Below, in pieces: positions 1-20,989 of a stretch of 64,000 bases of DNA; within the stretch, counting starts at the first letter, position 1, and the number at the start of each line of letters is the position of its first letter. The notes beneath the pieces were generated by a model. That model was not told where the DNA came from, did no database searches, and saw only the letters and a program-made list of their open reading frames with translations. Position numbers and translations under genes: made by a program. Source of the stretch: Candidatus Methanomethylicia archaeon. GTDB lineage: Archaea > Thermoproteota > Methanomethylicia > Culexarchaeales > Culexarchaeaceae. The stretch spans positions 352,001 through 416,000 of the forward strand of contig JAVYVS010000001.1 in NCBI GenBank assembly GCA_038727515.1. The letters run 5' to 3'.

Positions 1-326
1 GAAAGTGGTGTGTAAATTTCATTATACAAATAATCTGCAAAAGACGGTGCTAGATAATATGATAGAAATAACATTAACATTGCAATGAAGAAAATTATGC
101 TTACAAAATATCCCTTACGCCTTTGCATGATAATCTTACCATGATACATACATAATGCTATGAGACCTGTACCCAGAGCAAAGGTAGACATTATTAGAAC
201 CCAATTGGAAAGCTCAGTATTTGCTTCAGCTAGGAATGGTATCTTCAAGTAGTATTGTAGTAGAGAAATGAAAAATGTTACTGCAAATATGATTAATGGG
301 ATTTCTCTACGTCTAACCCAACTCAA
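1..326 (-). CDS. Multi-pass membrane protein, subunit B of DUF6754-type operon copy 1 (3' end beyond window edge; absent from ORF track)
   Basis: Hand translation from TTG at 326 (AGGGGGTG RBS upstream): MSWVRRREIPLIIFAVTFFISLLQYYLKIP...NWVLIMSTFALGTGLIALCMYHGKIIMQRRKGY...DYLYNEIYTPL, open to base 1. Aligns with 21879..22595 (KRSIPII; AMAIGIGAINVFRIHYRNVSRRRG; NYLY). Confidence 0.85.
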   Translation of the reverse strand, partial: MSWVRRREIPLIIFAVTFFISLLQYYLKIPFLAEANTELSNWVLIMSTFALGTGLIALCMYHGKIIMQRRKGYFVSIIFFIAMLMLFLSYYLAPSFADYLYNEIYTPL

Positions 327-339
327 CGATTACACCCCC

Positions 340-1098
340 TTATATCCTAAAAATCTTTGAAAGATCAAATCCCAATCCACCAAGTATGAAAGCTAAAATT
401 GAAAGTACAATAACTATGGCTCTAACTATATCTGAAGCTATGACACTACCAAGTTGTGGAAGATCTTTTGAAACATATGCACCAGCAACAAGAAGTTCTT
501 CAGCAATTAAACCATAATCACACAATGAAACAACATATGGTACTTGATACAGCCTTCCGGTTCCACCAACCTGTATTGCACCAGCTCTCGCACCAGCTTC
601 AGCCAAAATGATAGTCTCCCAATATAAAGCACCTAAAAGGAAGTTTGCAGCAGGCTTCTCACGCTCATAAATACCCATAACAGTAGCCATCAAAGCCGTT
701 TGAGTGGGAATATACAAAATCTGCTCAGGTTTATAATTCTCTCTAAAAGCAGCTTTAAACATATCTTCAGCTATGGGAACTATAGCTGGAACTGCCGCTA
801 GATACGTTAATGAAGCTTTATATTCCGCAGCCTTTCTAGCAACATAATTCAATAATGACAAACCAGCCAGTGTTTGAGGCATAACATCACCACTCAAACC
901 ACCAACACCAGTAGAATAGAATATTGGCCTACCAGTTTCCACAGCTCTACCAATAGCCTCATCAATTGCATCAAGACCTGGAATACGCCTAATCTTTGGA
1001 GGCTTACCACGCTTAACAGTATACCTCATAAAGAAGATGTATAAAGCAAAAGAGGTAATCAATAGAGCAAAACTAAAATATAGTCCCTCTTTAATCAT
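340..1098 (-). CDS. DUF6754-like membrane-anchored protein (subunit A, copy 1)
   Basis: N-terminal TM, IRRIPGLDAIDEAIGRAVETGRP, PAANFLLG, LAEAG..GAIQ.GGT, CDY.LI.EEL..AGAY, C-terminal TM. Clear paralog of 22606..23409. Confidence 0.8.
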   Translation of the reverse strand: MIKEGLYFSFALLITSFALYIFFMRYTVKRGKPPKIRRIPGLDAIDEAIGRAVETGRPIFYSTGVGGLSGDVMPQTLAGLSLLNYVARKAAEYKASLTYLAAVPAIVPIAEDMFKAAFRENYKPEQILYIPTQTALMATVMGIYEREKPAANFLLGALYWETIILAEAGARAGAIQVGGTGRLYQVPYVVSLCDYGLIAEELLVAGAYVSKDLPQLGSVIASDIVRAIVIVLSILAFILGGLGFDLSKIFRI

Positions 1099-1232
1099 AT
1101 TATCAACCCTTTAGAAAACCTCATAACAATTTCTAGATAAAATAGTATTTAAAAATTATGATACAATTTTTGTTGCTATAAATGAAAAATGTTTTAAATA
1201 TAATCATAGATATTGGTATATAGTGTTAAATC

Positions 1233-2915
1233 ATGACAAAATTTAAAATAGCAATAGTTAATGGTAGGATAGTCGATGGTACGGGAAATCCATGGTATAA
1301 GGCAAATATAGGTATAGATGATGGGAAAATAACTTTGATAACCAAATCAAAGATAAGTGGAGAATTATTGATAGATGCCAATAATTGTATAGTTTCCCCC
1401 GGATTCATAGACATACATTCACATTCAGATATGGGATTTAGAAATCTGATATATAATAAAGCTATGAATAGGGTTATGCAAGGAATAACTACAGAAGCTG
1501 TTGGAAATTGTGGATTTTCAGCATATGGATGGACGAGGGAGTATGCGGAAAAATATCAAGAGAGATTAAAGAAGTTTGGAGTTGAGTATGTAATTGATTG
1601 GACTAGATTAAGTGAATGGAAGAAGAAGGTGGAGGAGAGGGGATATGCAATAAACATTGCACCATTCGTTGGTTTTGGAACAATAAGAACAAGTGTACTT
1701 GGGGAAGAAGGTGAAGGAGGAGAAAGATCTGAAGTAAGTTGTGAAGAATTAAATAGTATGAAGAAGCTGCTTAGAGAAGCTATGGATGATGGAGCTTTCG
1801 GATTAACTGCAGGTTTAGAATATAGTGTACAGAGAAATGCTTACACTGAGGAATTAATAGAAATGTGTAAAGTGGTTGCAGAATACAATGGTTTATTCAT
1901 GGCTCACATAAGATCGGAAGAAGAAATGCTAATAGAAGCTGTAAAGGAATTCATAAGGATATGTGAAGAATCAGGGATCTCTGGATCCATATCACATCAT
2001 AAAGCATGCCACCCCAATAGTTGGGGGAAACCATTCGAAACTGTAAGATTAATAAGAGAAGCTAGAAGGAGGGGTGTAGACGTCATATGTGATCAATATC
2101 CATGGCTTAAAGTTGCAATAAGAAACGTAGGGGAATTCTTCAGAATTGAAGGAGAAGAAGAATTATCATTGGATGAAAGGGAAAAGATAATTGAATATAT
2201 GAAGGATGAAGAAAAATGGAAAAAGGTTAAGGAGGAAGCTATAAAGAAGGATGAAATGGAGAAAGAGTATATAGAAAAGAAGAAGAAGGAATTCGTTAAA
2301 AGAGGTATGCCATTTAGAATGCCTTGGAGCCCAATCACATACTTTGTAGTAGCATACTCAAAAACACACCCAGAATTCGTAAACAAAAACTTCACAGAAA
2401 TAGCGAAAATAATGGGTTTAGAAGATCCATGGGAAGCCATGAGAAAACTATACATAATGGATAATGGAGAAACCACAGCAGCTGAAGGATACATGAGGGA
2501 AGAAGACGTAATAGAAATAATGAAACAACCATTCACAACAATATCAACAGATGGATCAGCCGAAGATGAACCAAAATCATTACACCCGAGAAGCTATGGA
2601 ACATATCCACAATTCCTAGGATACTATGTTAGAGAGAAAAAGATTGTAGAATTAGAGGAAGCCATTAGAAAAATAACATCATTACCAGCAAGATTTCTAA
2701 ACCTAAAGGATAGAGGATTAATAAGAGAAGGCTACTGGGCAGACATAGTAATATTCGATGAAAACGAAATAGAAAACTTAGCAACATATGAAAAACCATG
2801 CACATATCCAAAAGGAATAAAATACGTCATTGTAAATGGAGAAATAGTAATGGAAAACGGTAAACACACAGGAAAACTACCAGGAAAAGTATTAAAATAT
2901 AACACCAAAACATAA
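1233..2915 (+). CDS. N-acyl-D-amino-acid deacylase (D-aminoacylase) family amidohydrolase
   Basis: IVDGTGNP, PGFIDIHSHSD, QGITTE..GNCG, AHIRSE, SHHK, TDG, HPRSYGTYP, G..ADIVIFD. Confidence 0.9.
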   Translation: MTKFKIAIVNGRIVDGTGNPWYKANIGIDDGKITLITKSKISGELLIDANNCIVSPGFIDIHSHSDMGFRNLIYNKAMNRVMQGITTEAVGNCGFSAYGWTREYAEKYQERLKKFGVEYVIDWTRLSEWKKKVEERGYAINIAPFVGFGTIRTSVLGEEGEGGERSEVSCEELNSMKKLLREAMDDGAFGLTAGLEYSVQRNAYTEELIEMCKVVAEYNGLFMAHIRSEEEMLIEAVKEFIRICEESGISGSISHHKACHPNSWGKPFETVRLIREARRRGVDVICDQYPWLKVAIRNVGEFFRIEGEEELSLDEREKIIEYMKDEEKWKKVKEEAIKKDEMEKEYIEKKKKEFVKRGMPFRMPWSPITYFVVAYSKTHPEFVNKNFTEIAKIMGLEDPWEAMRKLYIMDNGETTAAEGYMREEDVIEIMKQPFTTISTDGSAEDEPKSLHPRSYGTYPQFLGYYVREKKIVELEEAIRKITSLPARFLNLKDRGLIREGYWADIVIFDENEIENLATYEKPCTYPKGIKYVIVNGEIVMENGKHTGKLPGKVLKYNTKT

Positions 2916-3219
2916 AACCACTAAAAATAAAATATGTAAATTTGTAGAAAATTTATGGATTAATTGTGATTTGTAAAATGGAAGAACCAGCTTTTTGAGC
3001 TAATCCGTGAAAATTGATGTGGAGATTATGATTATCCAGAATTTAAAGAAATCAAACAGTTTTATAAATAATTTTTCGCAGAATAATTTCACACTTTACA
3101 ATATAATGAACATTTTCAACCATTTTAACGTAAATATTCATAGTGTTTACTGCGTTTTACATACACCAAAACTAAATCGTGATAGATAATTATTTTATAC
3201 CAAAACAACAAAATGTAAT

Positions 3220-4659
3220 GTGGCGATATATGTGGAAAAAGAAAAGGAGTATGCATTAAATTGGATAGAGAGTAATAGGGATAGGATAATATTGTTAAGT
3301 GATACTGTGTGGGAATATGCGGAATTAGGTTTGAAAGAATTTAAGTCTTCTAAGCTTCTTGCTGATGAACTTGAGAAGCATGGGTTTAAGGTTGAAATGG
3401 ATATTGCAGGTATGCCCACAGCCTTTGTAGCTACATGGGGATCTGGTCAACCTGTTATTGGCGTTATGGGTGAATATGATGCTTTGCCTAATCTTTCACA
3501 GAAGAAGGTTTCATGGAAAGAACCAATAGTTGAAGGGGGACCGGGACATGGATGTGGACATAATATTCATGGTGTTAGTGGGCTTGCAGCTGCAATAGCT
3601 GTTAGGTATGCCATGGAAAGATTTGGTATTAAAGGGACTATTAGGTTTTACGGTTGCCCAGCTGAAGAGAACTTTAGTGGAAAAGTGTTTATGGTTAGAG
3701 ATGGTTATTTTAACAATGTAGATGCTGTTATAAGTCATCATCCAAGTACAATGAATGGAGCAACTCTAATGAGCAGTTTAGCGAACAATTCAGTGAAATT
3801 CCACTTTTATGGTAAATCTTCACATGCTGGAAGTAATCCAGAAGCTGGTAGGAGTGCTTTGGATGCTGTTGAGCTTATGAATGTTGGTGTTAATTATATG
3901 AGGGAGCATGTTATACAGGATGCTAGAATCCACTATATTATTGAGAGAGGTGGAGGCCAACCAAACATTGTCCCTGACTATGCTAGAAGCTGGTATCTAA
4001 TAAGAGCTCCGGAAAGAGAACAAGTTGATCAAATTTATAATTGGATTTTGGATATAGCTAAAGGAGCAGCATTAATGACACAAACACAATACAAAGTAGA
4101 ATTCATAAAGGGGGTATACAATAAAATACCAAATAAAGTGATAGCTGAATTAATAGTTAAGAACATGAGGGAAATAGGTTTACCAAAGTATAGTGAGGAA
4201 GATTTAAAGTTTGCACAGGAAATAGCTAAAACAATACCATTAGAGGCAAAGATAAACCAATTGAGAAATTCGAAAAGACCTGGGTGGGAGAAGCTTATTG
4301 ATAAATTGATTGATGATGAGATTCCAGACCCTTGGGGTGAAGGTGAAGTAAGCCATGGCTCTACAGATGTATCAGACGTAAGTTGGCAAGCACCCACTGT
4401 AGAGTTTAGTACTGCAGCATGGGTTTTGGGGACTCCTGGGCATTCATGGCAGAATGTTGCTCAAAGTGCAGTTGGTTTAGGACATAAATCATTAATATTT
4501 GCAGCAAAAACCATGGCAGCAACAATAATAGACTTAATGATGAAAAATGAAATCTTAGAAAAAGCGAAAAAGGAGCATAAAGATAGACTTAAAGGAAGAA
4601 TATACAAATCTCCACTACCGCCAGATCATAAACCACCATTAGATGCATGGGAGAAATAA
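3220..4659 (+). CDS. M20 amidohydrolase, AbgB-like (p-aminobenzoyl-glutamate hydrolase subunit B family)
   Basis: GEYDALP, GHGCGHN, GCPAEE, HHP, GRSALDAVELMN, GSTDVSDVSW, PGHSWQ. Confidence 0.9.
   Translation: MAIYVEKEKEYALNWIESNRDRIILLSDTVWEYAELGLKEFKSSKLLADELEKHGFKVEMDIAGMPTAFVATWGSGQPVIGVMGEYDALPNLSQKKVSWKEPIVEGGPGHGCGHNIHGVSGLAAAIAVRYAMERFGIKGTIRFYGCPAEENFSGKVFMVRDGYFNNVDAVISHHPSTMNGATLMSSLANNSVKFHFYGKSSHAGSNPEAGRSALDAVELMNVGVNYMREHVIQDARIHYIIERGGGQPNIVPDYARSWYLIRAPEREQVDQIYNWILDIAKGAALMTQTQYKVEFIKGVYNKIPNKVIAELIVKNMREIGLPKYSEEDLKFAQEIAKTIPLEAKINQLRNSKRPGWEKLIDKLIDDEIPDPWGEGEVSHGSTDVSDVSWQAPTVEFSTAAWVLGTPGHSWQNVAQSAVGLGHKSLIFAAKTMAATIIDLMMKNEILEKAKKEHKDRLKGRIYKSPLPPDHKPPLDAWEK
3335..3446 (+). 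repeat. Near-identical tract shared by the AbgB paralogs (other copy 28431-28542)
   Basis: 111/112 nt identical by direct comparison; single A/G difference at 3401/28497. Confidence 0.9.
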
Positions 4660-4819
4660 TAGAAACTCAACCATAACAATTAAAATTATAAATTTTTATA
4701 AACTCACTAAATCATCATCTTTACTATTCCAAAATTTTATAGTCATCCACTTTACATATAATCAACGATCCAATCAAAATAAATTGTTAAAATTATGTTA
4801 ATAATTGGAGTTTACTAGC

Positions 4820-6055
4820 TTATGGTAGTCTATTTACTTCAATTTTACCTTCTTTCATGACTAATTTTATGTTTTCGATATTTCTTAAGATTCTTATATC
4901 TTCAAGTGGATTACCCTTTACTACAATTATATCTGCTAATTTTCCGGTTTCTATTGTTCCAATTTTATTTAATAAACCACATGCTTCAGCTGAAATTTTT
5001 GTGGCTGAAACTATTGCATCCATAGGTTTAAATCCGATTTTATCAACTAATAATTCTAGTTCCATAGCATTTGTTCCAAGTTTCCATAATTCTGGTCCAC
5101 CGAAATCTGTTCCTACAGCTATTTTAACTCCAGCTTCATAAGCCATTTTCACACTCTTTATGTGGCTTTCAAAAGCTTCTGCTGCCTTCATTAAACCCCA
5201 CTCCACAATTCCAACTTCTTTTCCACGTGTAACTATTTGGTGAACAATGGATAGTGTTGGTACTAATATAACATCTCTTTCCTTCATCATTCTGATAGCT
5301 TCTTCATCAAGGTATATTCCATGATCAATTGTTTTTACACCAGCAGATATAGCAATTTTTATTCCTTGAGTTCCCTGAGCATGAGCAGTCACAAAAGTTC
5401 CAACTTTTTGCGCTTCATCAACAATTGCTTTAATTTCTTCATATGAGAATTGAGTGTGTTCTGGTCTATCACGCATGGACATAACGCCTCCAGTGGCACA
5501 GATCTTAATGAAATCTGCACCTTCTCTTAAAGCGTATCTAGCAGCTCTACGGCAATCGTCTACACCATCACATATCGTTGGAATCTTTTCTTTAACCCAA
5601 TTTATCGGTAGGAAGTGTACATCCCCATGACCAAAAGTTTGACTTAGAACATAACCTGAAGCAATCACCCTAGGACCTCTAATACTACCCTCATTAATAG
5701 CAAATTTTAGGTATAATCCATTAGTTCCACCACAATCTTTAACTGTTGTAAAACCAGCATCCAGTAGAGCTGAAGCATCACTTACACATCTCAAAAGTTT
5801 AACTTGATCTGGAATTGTAAAATTCTCCTCTAACTTATGGGTTCTAGTACCCATGAAATGCATATGTGCATCTATAAGTCCAGGCATAATTGTTAAACCA
5901 TTTAAATCAATAATTTTAGCATCACTGGGAATTTTAACTTCACCACTAACACCAACAGCCTTAATTATACCACCATCAATAACCACAATAGCTTTATCTA
6001 ATGGAGGGCTACCAGTACCATCAATTAAAAATCCATTCACTAAAGCCAAAATCAT
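4820..6055 (-). CDS. Metal-dependent amidohydrolase (Xaa-Pro dipeptidase/prolidase-like subgroup)
   Basis: PGLIDAHMH, GADFIKICATGGV, AHAQG, IDHG, GTD, GKLADIIVV. Confidence 0.88.
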   Translation of the reverse strand: MILALVNGFLIDGTGSPPLDKAIVVIDGGIIKAVGVSGEVKIPSDAKIIDLNGLTIMPGLIDAHMHFMGTRTHKLEENFTIPDQVKLLRCVSDASALLDAGFTTVKDCGGTNGLYLKFAINEGSIRGPRVIASGYVLSQTFGHGDVHFLPINWVKEKIPTICDGVDDCRRAARYALREGADFIKICATGGVMSMRDRPEHTQFSYEEIKAIVDEAQKVGTFVTAHAQGTQGIKIAISAGVKTIDHGIYLDEEAIRMMKERDVILVPTLSIVHQIVTRGKEVGIVEWGLMKAAEAFESHIKSVKMAYEAGVKIAVGTDFGGPELWKLGTNAMELELLVDKIGFKPMDAIVSATKISAEACGLLNKIGTIETGKLADIIVVKGNPLEDIRILRNIENIKLVMKEGKIEVNRLP

Positions 6056-6152
6056 AGATAAATCACCATATGAACATTATGTTTATAAGTGGTAAATAAA
6101 GACAATGAAACACAAAAGTTAACATCATTTTAAAATAATATTTGAAATGAGT

Positions 6153-7694
6153 TTATTCTAATCCTATGGGTAAACCATCTCCACGGATATCTGTATATCC
6201 AATTTTCAATTTATCACGAACTTCAACTATTGATGCAACACCAATTCTAGATGGGTAATCAATTATTCTATATTTAAACCCTTTAAGTTCACCACTAATA
6301 TATCCCTTTTCACATTCAACATTAATTCCTCCGGGTTCCCATCTAAATCTTGGAGTTTCAAGAGCTAATTGTGGATGTAAACCATAATCTAAGATGCAAT
6401 TTATTATTTGAGCATGTAATAGTGGTCTTAAATGTCCTCCTGAAAGGCCCATGGCCATCCATCTAGATCCATAATTGATTAAAGTTGCTGATAATGTATG
6501 TAAAGGTTTCTTCATAGGTTCAAGTTTATTGACGTGGTTATCAGTTAATGTAAAGGATGATCCACGGGAGTTTAATGTGATATTGTATGTGGGTTCAGTA
6601 ATATATGAACCAAAATTATGGAATATGCTTTGAATACATGAAACTATATAATCTTTATCATCAGCTATAGCGAAATAAGTAGTATCGCTTTGAGAAGGAA
6701 GGGTATAACCCCTATCATTAATGTCTTGCTTCCTTAGATTTTCTAGAAATTCCTCAGATAACAATTTATCTACACTAACAGACATAAATCTAGGGTCACT
6801 TACATAATGATCTCTAACTTTATAGGCTTTTACAGATGCCTCAAGAATACATTGAACCCTATCCATGGATAACAATGGAATACTGCTAAACATTACATTT
6901 TCAATAAGCTTAAGGATGTGTAATGTAGTTATACCTTGAGAATTTGGAGGCATCTCATATATACTCCAACCTTTATAATCAATCTTTATTGGTTGTTGAA
7001 ATTCACTATGATAATACTTTAAATCATCTAACTCCATTACACCACCAAGAGATTTAATATAATCAACAATTTTTACTGCAATATCCCCTTCATAGAAGTT
7101 TCTCGCATCTTCAGCAATCAATCTTAAAGCTTGAGCCAAACCTTTAAAAGATAGTATATCACCTTCATTTGGAAAACCAGCATCTAAACAATAAGTAGTT
7201 CTAGAACCAATATCCTTAATTAATTCTCCACCAAAATTACGTAAAGCTCTACAAAAACTCCTATGTGCAGGAAACCCTTCTTCTGCAAGTTTAATTGATG
7301 GCGCTAATAAATCACTCCACTCCATTGATCCAAAAGCTCTCCATAAACCATATAATCCATCAACCATTCCAGGTATAGTTATAGAATATACACTATGAAT
7401 TGGCATTGAAGTAAACCCTAAATTACGCATATAATCCACAGTTAAATTCTTAGGGGAATATCCACTACCATTGATAACATGAACATTACCATTTGGATCA
7501 CGTATGATAGCAAAGAAATCCCCTCCTAAACCAGATAAATGTGGTAAAACAACTCCAAGGGTAAAACCCACTGCTACAGTAGCATCAATAGCATTACCAC
7601 CAGATCTAAGAATATTTGCACCAATACTTGAAGCCAATGGACTTTCAGAAGCTACAACACCATGAACAGAATAAAATGGTGCACATAAATACAT
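6153..7694 (-). CDS. Gamma-glutamyltransferase family Ntn-hydrolase
   Basis: GGNAIDA, SGLGGD, PPNSQG, DTTYF (Thr nucleophile), KKPLHTL. Confidence 0.9.
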   Translation of the reverse strand: MYLCAPFYSVHGVVASESPLASSIGANILRSGGNAIDATVAVGFTLGVVLPHLSGLGGDFFAIIRDPNGNVHVINGSGYSPKNLTVDYMRNLGFTSMPIHSVYSITIPGMVDGLYGLWRAFGSMEWSDLLAPSIKLAEEGFPAHRSFCRALRNFGGELIKDIGSRTTYCLDAGFPNEGDILSFKGLAQALRLIAEDARNFYEGDIAVKIVDYIKSLGGVMELDDLKYYHSEFQQPIKIDYKGWSIYEMPPNSQGITTLHILKLIENVMFSSIPLLSMDRVQCILEASVKAYKVRDHYVSDPRFMSVSVDKLLSEEFLENLRKQDINDRGYTLPSQSDTTYFAIADDKDYIVSCIQSIFHNFGSYITEPTYNITLNSRGSSFTLTDNHVNKLEPMKKPLHTLSATLINYGSRWMAMGLSGGHLRPLLHAQIINCILDYGLHPQLALETPRFRWEPGGINVECEKGYISGELKGFKYRIIDYPSRIGVASIVEVRDKLKIGYTDIRGDGLPIGLE

Positions 7695-7819
7695 GGAAGA
7701 ATATATGTAAAATTTATGTTTTAAACATTACCATGAAATATCTAAATCACCAAAATAAAAGTATCAATCACCATTTAAATGGGAAATCATATATCTACTG
7801 AAAACAAATTGAATATAAT

Positions 7820-8323
7820 ATGAAAATTGCAATAGTCTATTACAGTAAAACTGGTACCACGAGAAGTATTGTAAATAGGATATGGAAAGAATTGGAAAAA
7901 GAAAATGTGAATGTTAGAGTATTTGAATTAAAACATGAAAATGAATATGCAAATACACTACTACATTTAAATCCAAGACTAATATATGAAACACTATCAG
8001 ATAAAACTATTAAGATAGTGGGAGATGAAGAATTCCATGAAGATGAATTCAACCTTATAATAATAGGTTCACCAATATGGTATGGTAGGGAAACACCAAT
8101 CATACGAAGATTCATAAAGAAATATGCAAATAAAATAAAGACACCAATAATACTCTTAACAACATCAAAACTGGACATAGACTACTCAAAAAACTTAAAG
8201 ATGAAGCTTGAAGCTATGGGGTATAACGTTATATCAAATATATCCATAACAACTAAAAATGTGAATTCTTCAATAAGTAAACTTATTGAAGAATTGAAAA
8301 ACATTTTAAGTAAAATTAGTTAA
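7820..8323 (+). CDS. Flavodoxin-like protein
   Basis: IVYYSKTGTT FMN loop; IIGSPIWYG. Confidence 0.85.
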   Translation: MKIAIVYYSKTGTTRSIVNRIWKELEKENVNVRVFELKHENEYANTLLHLNPRLIYETLSDKTIKIVGDEEFHEDEFNLIIIGSPIWYGRETPIIRRFIKKYANKIKTPIILLTTSKLDIDYSKNLKMKLEAMGYNVISNISITTKNVNSSISKLIEELKNILSKIS

Positions 8324-8342
8324 TTAAGGTACAGTGAGATAA

Positions 8343-9074
8343 ATGTACTGGATATTAGAGGAATTAACTTGGGAAGAAGCTAAAGAAGCCATAAAAACAG
8401 CTGATTACATAATCCTACCAACTGGAAGTTTAGAGCAGCATGGATTACACCTACCATTAAATGTTGATAATATAAGAGCAGATAACTTAACGAATGAAAT
8501 ACTAAAGAGAGCAGATAAATACAATTTAAAACTAATAAAACTTCCAACATTAACATATGGATGTTCAGAGCATCACATGTATTTCCCTGGAACAGTAACA
8601 CTTGAATTAGATACTTACATTAAAGTTGTTAGAGATATTGCATATAGCATGTATAGACATGGAGCCAAAAGATTTCTAATACTTAATTATCATGGTGGAA
8701 ATATTCAACCATTAAATATTGCGATACAAATCATAAGAAAAGAAACTGGTATGAAAACGTATTTAATACATTGGACTCAGTACGCTAGAGATCTAATTGA
8801 TAAATGGGCTAAACCAGGATGGGGACATGCATGTGAACATGAGACAAGTATGATAATGTACTATAGACCAGAATTGGTTAGGAAAAATAAGATTGTAAAG
8901 CCAAAGATAAAAATGACTACACCAATAAGTGAATTCAGATATTTCCATGAAATAACAGATACTGGAGGTATAGGTGATCCAACAATAGCAAAACCAGAAT
9001 ATGCTGAAATGATAATTGGAGAAGTAAGTGAAAGAATACTAAAAATATTAAGTGAAACATTAAAAACTGAATAA
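8343..9074 (+). CDS. Creatininase family amidohydrolase
   Basis: LPTGSLEQHGLHLPL..D, SEHH..FPGT, NYHGGN, GHACEHETS. Confidence 0.9.
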   Translation: MYWILEELTWEEAKEAIKTADYIILPTGSLEQHGLHLPLNVDNIRADNLTNEILKRADKYNLKLIKLPTLTYGCSEHHMYFPGTVTLELDTYIKVVRDIAYSMYRHGAKRFLILNYHGGNIQPLNIAIQIIRKETGMKTYLIHWTQYARDLIDKWAKPGWGHACEHETSMIMYYRPELVRKNKIVKPKIKMTTPISEFRYFHEITDTGGIGDPTIAKPEYAEMIIGEVSERILKILSETLKTE

Positions 9075-9079
9075 AATTT

Positions 9080-10264
9080 TCATTTACCTTTTTGTAGATA
9101 TTTCCCGAAATTAATGAATAATACTAACGCGATGAAATATAGTACAATAGCAACTATAAAGATTATTGATAAACCAAGAGAAGTAATCAATATGGATAAT
9201 ATTACTGGCATAATAATACCAATTAAACTCATTGGCACAAACTCTAAACTATAGGCTGTACCTCTATATTCAGGTTTAACTATACATGCAACAATCGAAC
9301 TTGTAATAGGCATAGTCATACTACTAAAGAAGCCATAGGTAAGATACATTAAAACTATTATGTAAATTGATGGGGAAAATATTATTCCAAAAATGGAGAG
9401 GATTAACATAGATATAATAAATGTAAATGAATTTCTAAGACCAAATTTATCTCCAATAAAACCTCCAACTAAATTACTGATTAACCCTAGAAGTGGACTT
9501 AAACCAAAAATAATACTTGAAATTGCAGGATCCAGCCCTCTCTCATAGGTAAAATAGCTAGTGATGTATGTAGAAATAGATGTGCCGGCGGCATCTCTAA
9601 AAAGCATAATAATTAAGAAGAAGATGAAGACAGAATTTAAAACTTCTTTAAAAGATGATTTAACACTCACCTTAGAATTATCAGATTTACTTTTAATGCC
9701 TTCACTAATACCAAAATCAATTTTAACAATAATAGAAACAATGATAGATATTAGTATTGGGATAATCCAAACTAAATATGCATATTTCCAGCCAAATCGA
9801 TTTAACACTAAGCCAAGGGTTAATGGGCCTATAGCTACACCTAAAGTTCCACTTGCACCATGAAATCCCATACCTCTACTCCTAAAATTTGATGGTAGAA
9901 TATTTGCAGCAGCACTTAAAGCAGGTGGATGATAAAGTGTTGAAGCTATAGAAGTTAATGAAAAACCAAGGACGATGAACTCTATAGAATTTGTAGATAA
10001 AATTATGACTCCAGCTAGAAACTCAAGGAATAAACTTATGGAAATTACCTTTGTAGCACCAAAACGATCAGCAATTAAACCACTTGGAATAGATAAGAGT
10101 AGGGAGGAAAGCCTTGGAATGGCTACAATTAAACTAACAATTAAAAAGGGTAATTCATATTCACTTTTTATTATGGGTATTAAAGCTAGAGGAAGTTCCG
10201 TATAAACATGAAGTAGAGTATGTGAAAAACATAGGAAGACCAGCTTAAATTTGAAATCCCCCAA
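9080..10264 (-). CDS. MFS transporter
   Basis: About 12 hydrophobic segments; GLIADRFG and GFIGDKFG motif A; YHP; RGTAYS. Confidence 0.9.
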   Translation of the reverse strand: MGDFKFKLVFLCFSHTLLHVYTELPLALIPIIKSEYELPFLIVSLIVAIPRLSSLLLSIPSGLIADRFGATKVISISLFLEFLAGVIILSTNSIEFIVLGFSLTSIASTLYHPPALSAAANILPSNFRSRGMGFHGASGTLGVAIGPLTLGLVLNRFGWKYAYLVWIIPILISIIVSIIVKIDFGISEGIKSKSDNSKVSVKSSFKEVLNSVFIFFLIIMLFRDAAGTSISTYITSYFTYERGLDPAISSIIFGLSPLLGLISNLVGGFIGDKFGLRNSFTFIISMLILSIFGIIFSPSIYIIVLMYLTYGFFSSMTMPITSSIVACIVKPEYRGTAYSLEFVPMSLIGIIMPVILSILITSLGLSIIFIVAIVLYFIALVLFINFGKYLQKGK

Positions 10265-10340
10265 TAAGCATCACCATTATAATCACATCTAAAATAGACT
10301 TTATCAATTATGTTGTAAACAAAATAAATTTATCGCAAAA

Positions 10341-10736
10341 TTAGCATTTAGAACTCTCTACAACTTCAAAGTGTACATGCCTACCATCTTTATCAAAAAC
10401 AGCAATGCAATCAACACCATTATAAGGGTATGCAATGATAACCATGATTACACCATACATACCACTATAATCCTCCACGGAGGGTTCTAAAATTCCAGAG
10501 GGATGGGAGTGTAAACTCCCAATTATAGTTAAATCGATTGGTATCATAGAAGGATTAAAACTAACAAAACCTTTACCAAGAGTAGTTAATGGAGGAAATA
10601 AGAATTCATATATTAGAAAGCCATCCCTAAATCTCTTACCCCTCAACAATAGGAATATCTCCCTTGGATGCATATCCCTAGCATATGAAAGGAGAGAGTA
10701 GAGTACATTTTCACAAAAATATATTTTCAAAGGCAT
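10341..10736 (-). CDS. JAMM/MPN+ (Mov34) metalloprotease
   Basis: HPREI...GSLHSHPSG...PSVED JAMM motif. Start moved to ATG 10736 because the longer ORF overlaps the divergent gene. Confidence 0.88.
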   Translation of the reverse strand: MPLKIYFCENVLYSLLSYARDMHPREIFLLLRGKRFRDGFLIYEFLFPPLTTLGKGFVSFNPSMIPIDLTIIGSLHSHPSGILEPSVEDYSGMYGVIMVIIAYPYNGVDCIAVFDKDGRHVHFEVVESSKC

Positions 10737-10834
10737 CACCAACAATGAGAAAAAACCGTAAATATATAGACTCAACCAAATATAAACCTTAAATAATTTA
10801 GGTGGAGGTATAAATAAATTATTTTGGTGAATAT

Positions 10835-13054
10835 ATGAAAAACTTGAAAGAAAAGACATTAACACTTCTACTAACCTTAATAATGATTTTAACATTAACA
10901 AAAGCAAGCTTTATTGAACTAAACGTGAAAGCAGAAACACTCACATATTACGCTGAAAAAATTAAATTCCCCCTTCACAGCCTTCCAGAACCAGTTTTAA
11001 ATGGTGGAATTTTCAATGTAACGATTAAAATGGATTCCAATGTTAAATGGATTAAAGCAGAAGTATATAATGAAACACATAGATTAAATGCAAATCTATT
11101 AAAGGCAAACTACATATCTGAAAAAGGTATTTGGCAATTAAGTTTCAAATTAACAAATGAGTATAGTGAAGGTGTATATAATTTAGATTTAATCTATGAG
11201 GGAGGAATATTATCTCAACCTAGATGTCTATGGATACTTCCAGAGTGGCCTGAGAAACTAGACATACTTGCATGTGGAGATGTTAAACCTGAAGGATTAC
11301 CATACTTTTGGGAGATGATGTATGAAGCCAACCTAATAAACCCAGATTTAATAATATTCTTAGGAGACTTAGTAAATGTACCAACAGTAACACTACAATG
11401 GATAAAATTCCTAGAACCATATATGATGTTCAAAGACCCAATGTATGTTACCGCTGGAAACCATGAGTATGAAGATATTGGAAGTGCAAAACTCTATGAA
11501 AATATAATTGGACCATTAAATTACAGTATAACCATAGGAAAATTCCTACTCGTGAGTTTAGACACCGATAAAGATGGATGGGTGAGAATGGAGAGATTAA
11601 AATGGCTTGAAAACATTTTAAAAGAAAACAAAGAGAAAACGAAAATAATATTCTTCCACTTCCCATTATTTACAGAAAAACTAAAGGAGTGGGGAATAGG
11701 ATATTTAAATATAACCTCATGGACAGATATAGACTACTATATAGAAAAAGGATATTTGTTCGGAGACCCATCAGACTATCTTTCATGGAAAGGTCATCCA
11801 AACGAAGCAAAAGAACTATTTAGATTAATAATAGAATACGATGTCAGACTAATACTATCAGAACACATACATTCAGATTTAAATGTAATAGTATTTAATA
11901 ACTCAACTGGAAAGAAACATTACTTCATAACTCCAGCAGCATTGGCATACGACATACCAAATTACGATATAAGAGGTTTCAAACTTATAAGGATATATAG
12001 CAATGGAACAATAGATGAAAATACACTATACAATCCTGGAACAGGATTATTTAAATATCCAAACTCAATACCCATAGACTCTGGAACAACAACATCCTAT
12101 AAACCTAAAACACCATATAAACTCGGCTACCTAGAATACTATTATACACCATCAAATAACGGTTCATCACATGTAGTATCAATAGTAATATCTAATGAAT
12201 TAAATATAACAATAACAAATCCAAGGATAATATTCCAAGTACCAGCAGATATACCAATAACAAAATATAAATGGCATCCCTACCAGCCACAATTCAAATA
12301 TGTGGAAAAAGATGGGAAATACTATATAATACTAACAAATATAACTATTCCAGCAAAAAGTAGAATGTACTTTACAATTGAAAGCATAGAAGATAAAGAT
12401 ACACCACAAATAAAATTTGTAAATATACCGCAAAATATAGACAAGAATAAATGGGTTAAAATAACTATTGAAGCATTTGATAGTGGATGGGGAGTAAAAG
12501 AAGTAGAGGTAGAATATAAAACAAGCGAGGGAAACTGGCAGAAAACAAACATAATTGACTTAGTAAAAGCCGAAAATGGGAGAATAACATATGATGTATG
12601 GATACCACCCATACCAATAGATACAATAATGACACTAAAAGCCACAGTTATAGATCTCTCTGGAAAAACTGCGGAGACAACTACAAATGTAATTGTTGGA
12701 CAACCAAAACCGAAATACACATTAAAAATACTATCATCACCAATAGAAGGATTAACGGTAACTATCAATGGAACAACTGTAACAACACCTTACACAGCAA
12801 CATTAGAAGAAGCAAAATACATAATAACAATACCACAAGAATTAACCATTGCAGGAAAACAATATAAATTTGAGAAATGGAGTGATGGAAATACTCAAAC
12901 CACTAGAACAATAGTATTAAATCAAAATCAAACATTAACCATATACTACACATCAATAGAACCAACACAAATACCGTCAATAACCTACATAGCAATACCA
13001 TTAGTCATCATAATAATAGCACTAGTAATTATCGTAAAGATTAGGAAAACATAG
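10835..13054 (+). CDS. Secreted, C-terminally anchored calcineurin-like metallophosphoesterase with Ig-like/beta-sandwich domains
   Basis: Signal peptide; GDVK, GDLV, GNHE, HFP, EHIH; Thr-rich beta domains (YKFEKWSDG); C-terminal TM then KIRK. Confidence 0.82.
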   Translation: MKNLKEKTLTLLLTLIMILTLTKASFIELNVKAETLTYYAEKIKFPLHSLPEPVLNGGIFNVTIKMDSNVKWIKAEVYNETHRLNANLLKANYISEKGIWQLSFKLTNEYSEGVYNLDLIYEGGILSQPRCLWILPEWPEKLDILACGDVKPEGLPYFWEMMYEANLINPDLIIFLGDLVNVPTVTLQWIKFLEPYMMFKDPMYVTAGNHEYEDIGSAKLYENIIGPLNYSITIGKFLLVSLDTDKDGWVRMERLKWLENILKENKEKTKIIFFHFPLFTEKLKEWGIGYLNITSWTDIDYYIEKGYLFGDPSDYLSWKGHPNEAKELFRLIIEYDVRLILSEHIHSDLNVIVFNNSTGKKHYFITPAALAYDIPNYDIRGFKLIRIYSNGTIDENTLYNPGTGLFKYPNSIPIDSGTTTSYKPKTPYKLGYLEYYYTPSNNGSSHVVSIVISNELNITITNPRIIFQVPADIPITKYKWHPYQPQFKYVEKDGKYYIILTNITIPAKSRMYFTIESIEDKDTPQIKFVNIPQNIDKNKWVKITIEAFDSGWGVKEVEVEYKTSEGNWQKTNIIDLVKAENGRITYDVWIPPIPIDTIMTLKATVIDLSGKTAETTTNVIVGQPKPKYTLKILSSPIEGLTVTINGTTVTTPYTATLEEAKYIITIPQELTIAGKQYKFEKWSDGNTQTTRTIVLNQNQTLTIYYTSIEPTQIPSITYIAIPLVIIIIALVIIVKIRKT

Positions 13055-20208: not shown

Positions 20209-20985
20209 TTAATTAGATGCTGGAATTGTTGCTGGTTTCATAGCAGCCTTTTTCTTCTTATAATCAGTGTATATAATGTATAATAAGCCTAAGCAACATA
20301 TTGCAGTCATTATTGGAGCGTAAACACCAGATTCAGGGGTACCTATACCACTAGCCTTCCATGGGAAATATCTACTACCAAGCAATAATTGGAACCTTTG
20401 TATAAGTAGAGATTCTCTACCCATAACTGTATTAGCGAAGGACGCACCTAAAGCGGCTAAAATTACATATCTACCAGCTTTATTTAAATTCTTTAATGGA
20501 CCTTTAAGCTCAGTGGTAAATATGAAGAAGAATATTGCTAGTACAGCACCAAAGAATAATACAAATCTATTAAACGTGGTGAAAGGATCGGCAGCAAACA
20601 ATGATGTACCTATAGCAGCATTTATTTGACCAACGAAATCTGATCTAATAGTACCCCTTAAACCAGTTCCAAGACCATAACCAATACCAATAGCTATAGG
20701 TATCCTGTATAACCAGAAATACTTTCTTGAGAAGAAGAAGTAATAGCATAATCCTATAAGAGCCCATGGAAATACGAAATCCCATCTACCACGATAAACA
20801 ACTGGGTTATATAGGTAATTCTGGAAGAACCATAAGTCGTATGAAACACCATAACCAACACTTATACCAACGTATAAGTGCTCTACAAATCTAAATAGTG
20901 GGTTTTCCCTATATAAGTATGATAGACAACCAAAGCTTACGAATACAGCAGTCCATACGAAAATTAGTTCTTGTAATGTCACCAT
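20209..20985 (-). CDS. Multi-pass membrane protein, subunit D of DUF6754-type operon
   Basis: About 7 TM; SYLYRENPLFRFVEHLYVG; GRYVIL.ALGASFANTVMGR. ATG 20985 follows GGAGGTGGGTGA. Confidence 0.85.
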   Translation of the reverse strand: MVTLQELIFVWTAVFVSFGCLSYLYRENPLFRFVEHLYVGISVGYGVSYDLWFFQNYLYNPVVYRGRWDFVFPWALIGLCYYFFFSRKYFWLYRIPIAIGIGYGLGTGLRGTIRSDFVGQINAAIGTSLFAADPFTTFNRFVLFFGAVLAIFFFIFTTELKGPLKNLNKAGRYVILAALGASFANTVMGRESLLIQRFQLLLGSRYFPWKASGIGTPESGVYAPIMTAICCLGLLYIIYTDYKKKKAAMKPATIPASN

Positions 20986-20989
20986 ACTT

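Follow-up and report, generated by a model that had tools for sequence, protein, structure and literature searches.

The op8 cassette and its partner gene

The window analysed here, a stretch of 64,000 nucleotides (G000:C1:352001-416000), is part of the 1.59-Mb genome (33% G+C) of a hot-spring archaeon, to which archaeon YNP-LCB-024-027 and Candidatus Culexarchaeum nevadense (Culexarchaeia) are close kin. At its left edge lies op8, a cassette of four adjoining same-strand genes, A, B, C and D, every one of which has a homologue in the same place in the other cassettes of the genome, and head-to-head with op8 stands a gene for an amidohydrolase of the D-aminoacylase family (Table 1). An earlier note on this DNA had described the pair as a second, diverged copy of a DUF6754-type operon facing a D-aminoacylase, with further hydrolase genes following. 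The Culexarchaeia are described as peptide-fermenting anaerobes and as generalists at geothermal sites (PMC9723716); that paper mentions neither the DUF6754/MutL-like system to which op8 belongs nor aminoacylases.

Subunit A of op8 is a member of family PF20539 (DUF6754), scoring far above the gathering cut-off of 27 bits and covering model positions 15-249 of 257. As the earlier note proposed, it is a paralogue of the A protein of a second cassette in the window, op1 (22606-23409(-), 41% identity), and the residues quoted as differing at equivalent positions in op8 and op1 A (YWETII and YAESLE, TQTAL and EQFAF) do fall in matching alignment columns. The protein is laid out as a transmembrane helix, a soluble domain of ~200 aa and a further transmembrane helix, with hydrophobic segments at residues 6-24 and 224-242, and because five Lys/Arg residues stand directly behind the first of these the sequence suggests that the soluble domain is cytoplasmic. 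By the positive-inside rule there is a weak indication that the soluble domain of A lies inside the cytoplasm and that of C outside.

The second open reading frame (ORF) of op8, running off the window edge from a TTG start and missing from the gene track, had been taken for a paralogue of subunit B, and its full length bears this out: the complete protein (L009 9712-10326(-)) has 204 aa and is 27-34% identical to B of the other cassettes. Its orthologues share 87-88% identity in Culexarchaeum and 51-57% in Bathyarchaeia, the latter likewise 204 aa long but with an ATG start. Subunits C and D follow intact beyond the edge (genome C1:350230-351785), where the earlier note proposed to look for them, D being a polytopic protein of 223 aa (L009 8230-8901). 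The longest ORF for C (L009 8898-9785, 295 aa) opens with a TTG and overlaps B by 74 nt (L009:9707-9785 = genome C1:351707-351785); the true C is probably a protein of 269 aa read from an ATG 4 nt past the B stop, because its orthologues start there. Subunit against subunit, op1 and op8 are 27-42% identical.

The divergent region between A and the aminoacylase gene has the length and the box on each strand that were claimed for it. The box sequence TTTAAATA is not over-represented in this A+T-rich window (24 occurrences against 20 +/- 5 expected), and the region holds just one inverted repeat, a weak one; an Rfam scan of window positions 1-12000 gave no match. The aminoacylase-proximal box is kept in the related genomes G003 and G005, in two metagenome relatives, and in G004, a relative from which the cassette is deleted.

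Table 1. Features of the window discussed in the text
Feature	Position	Strand	Evidence or remark
Subunit B of op8, N-terminal 108 of 204 aa	1..326	-	TTG start at 326, polytopic membrane protein
A-B spacer, 13 nt	327..339	-	GGGGGTG Shine-Dalgarno-like stretch between A stop (340-342) and TTG
Subunit A (DUF6754) of op8	340..1098	-	PF20539, 208.6 bits, E 1.2e-61
Divergent intergenic region, 134 bp, two TATA-like boxes	1099..1232		TTTAAATA at 1146-1153(-) and 1193-1200(+)
D-aminoacylase-family amidohydrolase, 560 aa	1233..2915	+	PDB 9g5m, 1m7j, 3gip, E 1e-63 to 2e-61
M20D amidohydrolase, 479 aa	3220..4659	+	TIGR01891, 265.6 bits
Amidohydro_1 enzyme, nearest Caulobacter-type Xaa-Pro dipeptidase	4820..6055	-	PF01979, 7.3e-56; NF051886, 336.9 bits
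Gamma-glutamyltransferase (GGT) homologue	6153..7694	-	PF01019, 1.8e-111; TIGR00066, 333 bits, just under cut-off
Rest of island: flavodoxin-like protein, creatininase-family protein, major facilitator superfamily (MFS) carrier	7820..10264		Syntenic in G003
Paralogous cassette op1	20209..23409	-	A 22606-23409, B 21879-22595, C 20990-21976, D 20209-21018

For the partner enzyme the earlier name, D-aminoacylase, is borne out by its solved relatives. Similarity to the D-aminoacylase of Alcaligenes faecalis DA1 (1m7j, E 1.7e-62) and to N-acyl-D-glutamate deacylase Bb3285 (3gip, 2.1e-61) is full-length, in two stretches (residues 2-292 and 372-547), and all metal ligands are present (H62/H64 of the HxH motif, C93, H225, H255 and D440) and conserved across the enzyme's clade. 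Alike in these ligands and at E ~1e-62, the window enzyme differs from the two in being archaeal, in being encoded with a membrane unit and in carrying a charged insert: this Lys/Glu-rich segment (residues 293-371; 78 residues here, 74-78 overall) is a signature of the cassette-linked clade, paralogues having 27-65 residues across the equivalent stretch. The N-terminus shows no signal peptide. Judged by its residues the aminoacylase is cytoplasmic and catalytically intact, and with its metal ligands complete and no signal peptide this would mean that its substrate must be imported. Its specificity is not readable from homology, since the same list of PDB matches includes a carbohydrate de-N-acetylase, 9kb3. 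Flags reading '1 TAG' in the aminoacylase orthologues probably mark normal stop codons that the search translated past, the ORFs being intact with 559 aa.

Conserved linkage with one aminoacylase clade

The op8 type of A protein forms an orthogroup of its own, identities among the hits running from 51 to 93% and then dropping to at most 48% for paralogues, and the motif LYWET (containing YWET) is invariant throughout it. An alignment of this orthogroup served to scan contigs from genomes and metagenomes for further loci; the best remaining A matches in relatives, the cassettes of L018-L022, proved to be orthologues of another cassette of the genome, op2, and were set aside. An aminoacylase of one clade lies within 2 kb at 13 of the 14 informative op8-type loci, which come from Culexarchaeia and Bathyarchaeia and include some duplicates of one lineage. 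The arrangement takes three forms. Seven Culexarchaeia-type loci (A 76-100% identical), among them L087, the contig of this genome itself, and L090, that of G003, have the two head-to-head and 135-146 bp apart; five Bathyarchaeia loci (A 57-63%) run A-B-C-D and then, on the same strand, the aminoacylase, with an ORF gap of ~20-110 nt; and in one lineage the order is aminoacylase, a reversed PGA_cap gene and A-B-C-D. The lone locus without an aminoacylase has an IS110-family transposase directly behind D (L099:9170-10375). All cassette-linked aminoacylases fall in one clade of the tree with support 1.0, together with the orthologues of the relatives G004, G007 and G011, and five paralogues from this genome fall outside it.

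Across the two classes the pair is kept at 50-63% protein identity while every other neighbour, and the orientation, varies. Within the Culexarchaeaceae a whole 17-kb island around op8 is syntenic, and G003 and G005 keep all of it with the cassette head-to-head with the aminoacylase, whereas at the Bathyarchaeia loci no other island gene was found, the M20, prolidase-like and GGT genes included. The association with hydrolases that the earlier note predicted thus stands for the D-aminoacylase, in other genomes as well as here, and fails to extend to the other three, whose tie to the cassette is local to close relatives.

A survey of 62 non-redundant complete cassettes, in which the families recurring within 4 kb were ranked, gives a wider view from a biased sample, its loci having been picked with patterns from the op8 orthogroup. 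The D-aminoacylase family recurs at 11 loci, at a median distance of 83 bp, followed by an uncharacterised 131-aa protein (10 loci), a MutL-like ATPase (8), DUF885 (7), an uncharacterised 135-aa protein (6), Amidohydro_1, a second cassette and an RnfC_N-like partner of the ATPase (5 each) and M81/MlrC peptidase (4). DUF885 we take to be peptidase-like. The D-aminoacylase, Amidohydro_1, M81/MlrC and DUF885 families supply one or more neighbours to 14 of the 53 non-redundant cassettes that are of other types, and the aminoacylase family does so for just five.

Whether the pairing might be functionally meaningless, a matter of inherited synteny or chance, has to be weighed here, since the whole 17-kb island is simply syntenic in the Culexarchaeaceae and the window is rich in hydrolases in general. 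We regard this as highly unlikely: the pair persists at 50-63% identity across two classes as other neighbours and orientation change, and so few of the other-type cassettes have an aminoacylase-family neighbour. An evolutionary and functional tie between the op8 type of cassette and this one D-aminoacylase clade is, on comparative genomics, well supported.

Genes for a CapA-like protein (PGA_cap, PF09587) stand divergent from A in three Bathyarchaeia loci (L030:8460-9572, L097:4460-5572, L101:4158-5282). Speculatively, these genes and the GGT of the window hint at gamma-glutamyl or poly-gamma-glutamate-type substrates.

The hydrolase island

Of the enzymes encoded beyond the aminoacylase, the one called AbgB-like in the earlier note is a member of the M20D family, its best solved relatives being HmrA (4.6e-53) and a Xaa-Arg dipeptidase (2.4e-37), and AbgB is only a distant relative (a mere 9.5e-14 against the Abg utilisation protein 3io1); its gene is syntenic in G001, G003 and G004. 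The prolidase-like label fared similarly, in that a Xaa-Pro dipeptidase model is indeed the nearest to the Amidohydro_1 protein, whose score falls below the model's cut-off (500 bits for NF051886). The GGT assignment was confirmed. The surroundings of op8 also hold two Amidohydro_2 genes, two creatininase-family genes, an M28 peptidase and a flavin reductase.

Amide hydrolases are unusually dense in the window, which holds 9 of the 35 M20 or Amidohydro_1/3 genes of the genome, at ~1.4, 3.5, 4.8, 28.6, 30.3, 35.8, 50.3, 51.7 and 59.7 kb.

Eight cassettes and one MutL-like pair

The cassette at the window edge is a diverged paralogue, as had been claimed, although the count of two copies was too low: PF20539 occurs at eight places in the genome, all with the order A-B-C-D. 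Each subunit is homologous across the eight cassettes at 25-48% identity, one recent pair standing at ~70-80%, and no Pfam family matches B, C or D. In op5, the A gene (genome C1:633999-634730; L005, L014) contains an in-frame TAA, with B, C and D intact, and may be a pseudogene or reflect a sequencing error. The literature library searched yielded no paper on DUF6754, PF20539 or PF13941, and no function is known to have been described for the family.

Set against these eight cassettes is a single MutL/GlmL-like protein of the ASKHA fold (PF13941, 619 aa), encoded 200 kb away (C1:553956-555737) beside its RnfC_N-like partner (C1:552761-553903). The MutL-like protein has weak Hydantoinase_A and Hydant_A_N matches, and is related to the hydantoinase/oxoprolinase type of ATP-dependent amide hydrolase. 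At one op8-type locus (L104) a single strand carries the MutL-like gene, its partner, A-B-C-D and the beginning of the aminoacylase gene, the first two being 62% and 51% identical to the single copies of this genome. Among 40 relatives, ten of the same clade have both DUF6754 and the MutL-like protein, 29 others of the class have neither, and one, 57% complete, has DUF6754 without the ATPase; the genomes being kin, this phyletic co-occurrence amounts to roughly one evolutionary event. No ABC-type ATPase (PF00005) was found among the genes scanned beside the eight cassettes, i.e. three or four genes per side for six of them, more around op8 and two to four around op1.

M20 hits number 17 in the genome and Amidohydro_1/3 genes ~18, and op8 is the sole cassette to have such genes within 5 kb. 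Three lie there, for which the chance at a single random site is ~0.01. The other cassettes have mixed neighbours, among them a biotin carrier with an OadA/PycB-like carboxyltransferase, an acyl-CoA dehydrogenase, an S49 peptidase, an M14 carboxypeptidase, DUF885, a DapF-like epimerase and a radical-SAM enzyme. The biotin-carrier and OadA/PycB-like carboxyltransferase genes stand directly upstream of op3 (L012:5149-13057 = C2:282149-290057) on the same strand, with a PxpB/C-like fusion also upstream and a DUF917 (S-Me-THD-like) gene downstream, and may mark another cassette type with an enzyme partnership of its own. The DapF-like gene, the only one in the genome (L010:7652-8515 = C1:200652-201515), abuts op2, and does so likewise in G003 and G005 (L020, L021).

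Function of the op8 module

We consider it probable, with moderate confidence, that op8 is a module for the substrate-specific uptake of N-acyl-D-amino acids or of peptides containing D-residues. The membrane module would bring in the substrate of the aminoacylase, namely N-acyl-D-amino acids or small D-residue peptides, the aminoacylase would cleave it inside the cell, and the MutL-like ATPase pair would energise the module; the product may be carried further, in lineages where their genes adjoin the pair, by a DapF-like epimerase and a class-III aminotransferase. Transport itself, its direction, the class of substrate and energisation by the MutL-like ATPase are all what we infer, as are the different substrates of the paralogues and the feeding of hydrolases proposed in the earlier note. 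Uptake is favoured by four lines of argument: many diverged copies of the cassette accompany one candidate energiser, the operon is coupled to cytoplasmic catabolic hydrolases, the partner enzyme is intact and cytoplasmic, and in G011 an MFS carrier holds the equivalent position. Two MFS genes flank the aminoacylase orthologue there (L026:3172-4347, 7047-8216), one of them head-to-head with it at a distance of 97 bp.

The logic is that of abgABT, in which an importer is encoded beside the first cytoplasmic amidohydrolase. Like the Escherichia coli system (AbgT with the M20 proteins AbgA and AbgB), op8 is a membrane system beside a cytoplasmic amide hydrolase that needs an imported substrate. 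It has no sequence or fold relation to AbgT, however, comprises four membrane proteins and not one, and has for its partner a D-aminoacylase of the amidohydrolase superfamily in place of an M20 pair. The many modules with one candidate ATPase pair per genome recall the group II energy-coupling factor (ECF) transporters and the ATP-binding cassette (ABC) importers in which many substrate-specific membrane components share one energiser; unlike these, the DUF6754 modules have four proteins each, no ABC ATPase and no homology to the T or S components, and their candidate energiser is of the actin/ASKHA fold and only by inference coupled to them. More tentatively still, and with rather less than even confidence, DUF6754 cassettes and the MutL-like actin-fold ATPase pair may together constitute new modular ATP-linked importers, of which the op8 type would serve N-acyl-D-amino acids or D-residue peptides such as those from bacterial wall or capsule debris. 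Within the DUF6754 (PF20539) A-B-C-D family with its PF13941 ATPase, op8 is a full member that adds a specific, conserved enzyme partner.

Several findings weigh against an uptake module. Taken together, the eight cassettes show no excess of M20 or amidohydrolase neighbours (P 0.86 at 5 kb and 0.53 at 10 kb), and after this within-genome test the idea that every one of them adjoins amidohydrolases was dropped. Dependence of the enzyme on the cassette is also not strict. G004, of the same genus, lacks the cassette and keeps the aminoacylase and the whole island: at its junction (L023:8018-8220; compare G003, L016:9805-12862) ~85 nt from the 3' end of D adjoin the aminoacylase-proximal 60 nt, which by comparison of the two sequences is a deletion of ~2.9 kb that has left the putative aminoacylase promoter region in place. 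No op8 orthologue was found elsewhere in G004 (95% complete). G007 and G011 likewise carry an orthologue of the aminoacylase without an op8 cassette, that of G007 having no adjoining membrane system. The aminoacylase thus does not strictly need the op8 module, nor do the other hydrolases strictly depend on it, since every hydrolase gene survives in G004 after the loss of the cassette; there its role has passed to other carriers or cassettes, or else the link is conditional. Nor are the relatives in which the pair recurs independent of one another, the independent events amounting to about three arrangements in two classes.

Expression counts on both sides, RNA coverage of the cassette for the module and thin coverage of the aminoacylase against it. 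Contigs of one metatranscriptome cover A-D at 95-99% identity and bridge the A-B, B-C and C-D junctions, with a word depth of 20-39 over the cassette, 12-25 over the M20D gene and 0-3 over the aminoacylase, so that equal co-expression of cassette and aminoacylase, which had been suggested as a check, does not emerge from that library. The uneven depth across the locus argues for RNA rather than carried-over DNA; the contigs give neither strand, nor single transcript, nor reliable levels, and the three raw-read metatranscriptomes X2-X4, with no reads from the locus, constitute no test.

Finally, homology is silent on what A-D do. A profile of A found no solved relative in the PDB, A-D match no transporter family and B, C and D no Pfam entry. 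AlphaFold2 (AF2) models of B and D are helical bundles (predicted local distance difference test, pLDDT, 82.5 for the all-helical B and 91.8 for D) without a Foldseek match at E <= 0.001, and an exhaustive VIA search gave a best Z of 5.0-5.1, these Foldseek and VIA matches being helical-hairpin noise only; for C, the ESM Atlas returned unnamed clusters only. The system falls outside every described transporter or enzyme family tested.

That no transporter fold or family is detectable would suit a non-transporter, that is, a membrane-bound enzyme or docking platform that holds the MutL-like ASKHA protein or the aminoacylase and acts on a membrane-associated or lipid-linked N-acyl compound. Sizeable soluble domains in A and C, the weak Hydantoinase_A and Hydant_A_N matches of the MutL-like protein and the PxpBC-like carboxyltransferase, biotin-carrier, OadA/PycB-like and DUF917 genes beside other cassettes all agree with such a device. 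Its probability nevertheless seems to us low, if worth reckoning with, because a genome with eight diverged copies and a single ATPase pair shows the pattern of interchangeable substrate modules, because an MFS carrier occupies the same position in G011, and because the enzymes paired with cassettes are soluble, catabolic and drawn from several unrelated hydrolase families.

The epimerase and aminotransferase genes bear on two more readings. In L092 (1759-2619) and L103 (6749-7609) a DapF-like epimerase gene, orthologous to the neighbour of op2, adjoins the aminoacylase, together with an orthologous class-III aminotransferase gene. These neighbours fit the onward metabolism of a D-centre product, and suggest that the product is metabolised and not expelled, as it would be if op8 were an exporter or homeostasis device removing, for example, the D-amino acid or the acyl product of the aminoacylase. 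Linkage to an enzyme is silent on direction and so leaves room for export, although a membrane system together with a first cytoplasmic hydrolase makes the kind of operon that, as in abgABT, is typical of uptake; we think an exporter quite improbable. The same two neighbours also allow a biosynthetic reading, in which the aminoacylase deacylates an acylated diaminopimelate-type intermediate in concert with the DapF-like epimerase and a DapC/ArgD-like aminotransferase, the membrane unit being only loosely related. Genes of the DHDPS family and one of the LysA family are present in the genome, and the abutment of its only DapF-like gene on op2 would be in keeping. DapB is doubtful, with weak matches in ORFs of the wrong size that neither settle nor exclude the pathway; beyond this, the nearest solved relatives of the enzyme deacylate D-centres, the island here and in close relatives is catabolic (peptidases, GGT, creatininases), and it would stay unexplained why the operon is so tightly coupled to a membrane unit, all of which makes amino-acid biosynthesis very improbable.

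With uptake of N-acyl-D-amino acids or D-residue peptides as the preferred reading, the pairing of the op8 type with its aminoacylase is the first testable clue to what this membrane unit takes up. The DUF6754/MutL-like system occurs widely among uncultured archaea and bacteria, DUF6754 homologues numbering in the hundreds at E <= 1e-30, and accounts for ~1.5% of this small genome. If the reading is true, it would assign a substrate to the system as a whole for the first time and would describe a new transporter architecture, and prediction of substrates from neighbouring genes would become possible for the other cassette types. It would also mean that Culexarchaeia and Bathyarchaeia can feed on D-amino-acid compounds, which would explain part of how archaea of sediments and hot springs exploit necromass rich in D-amino acids.

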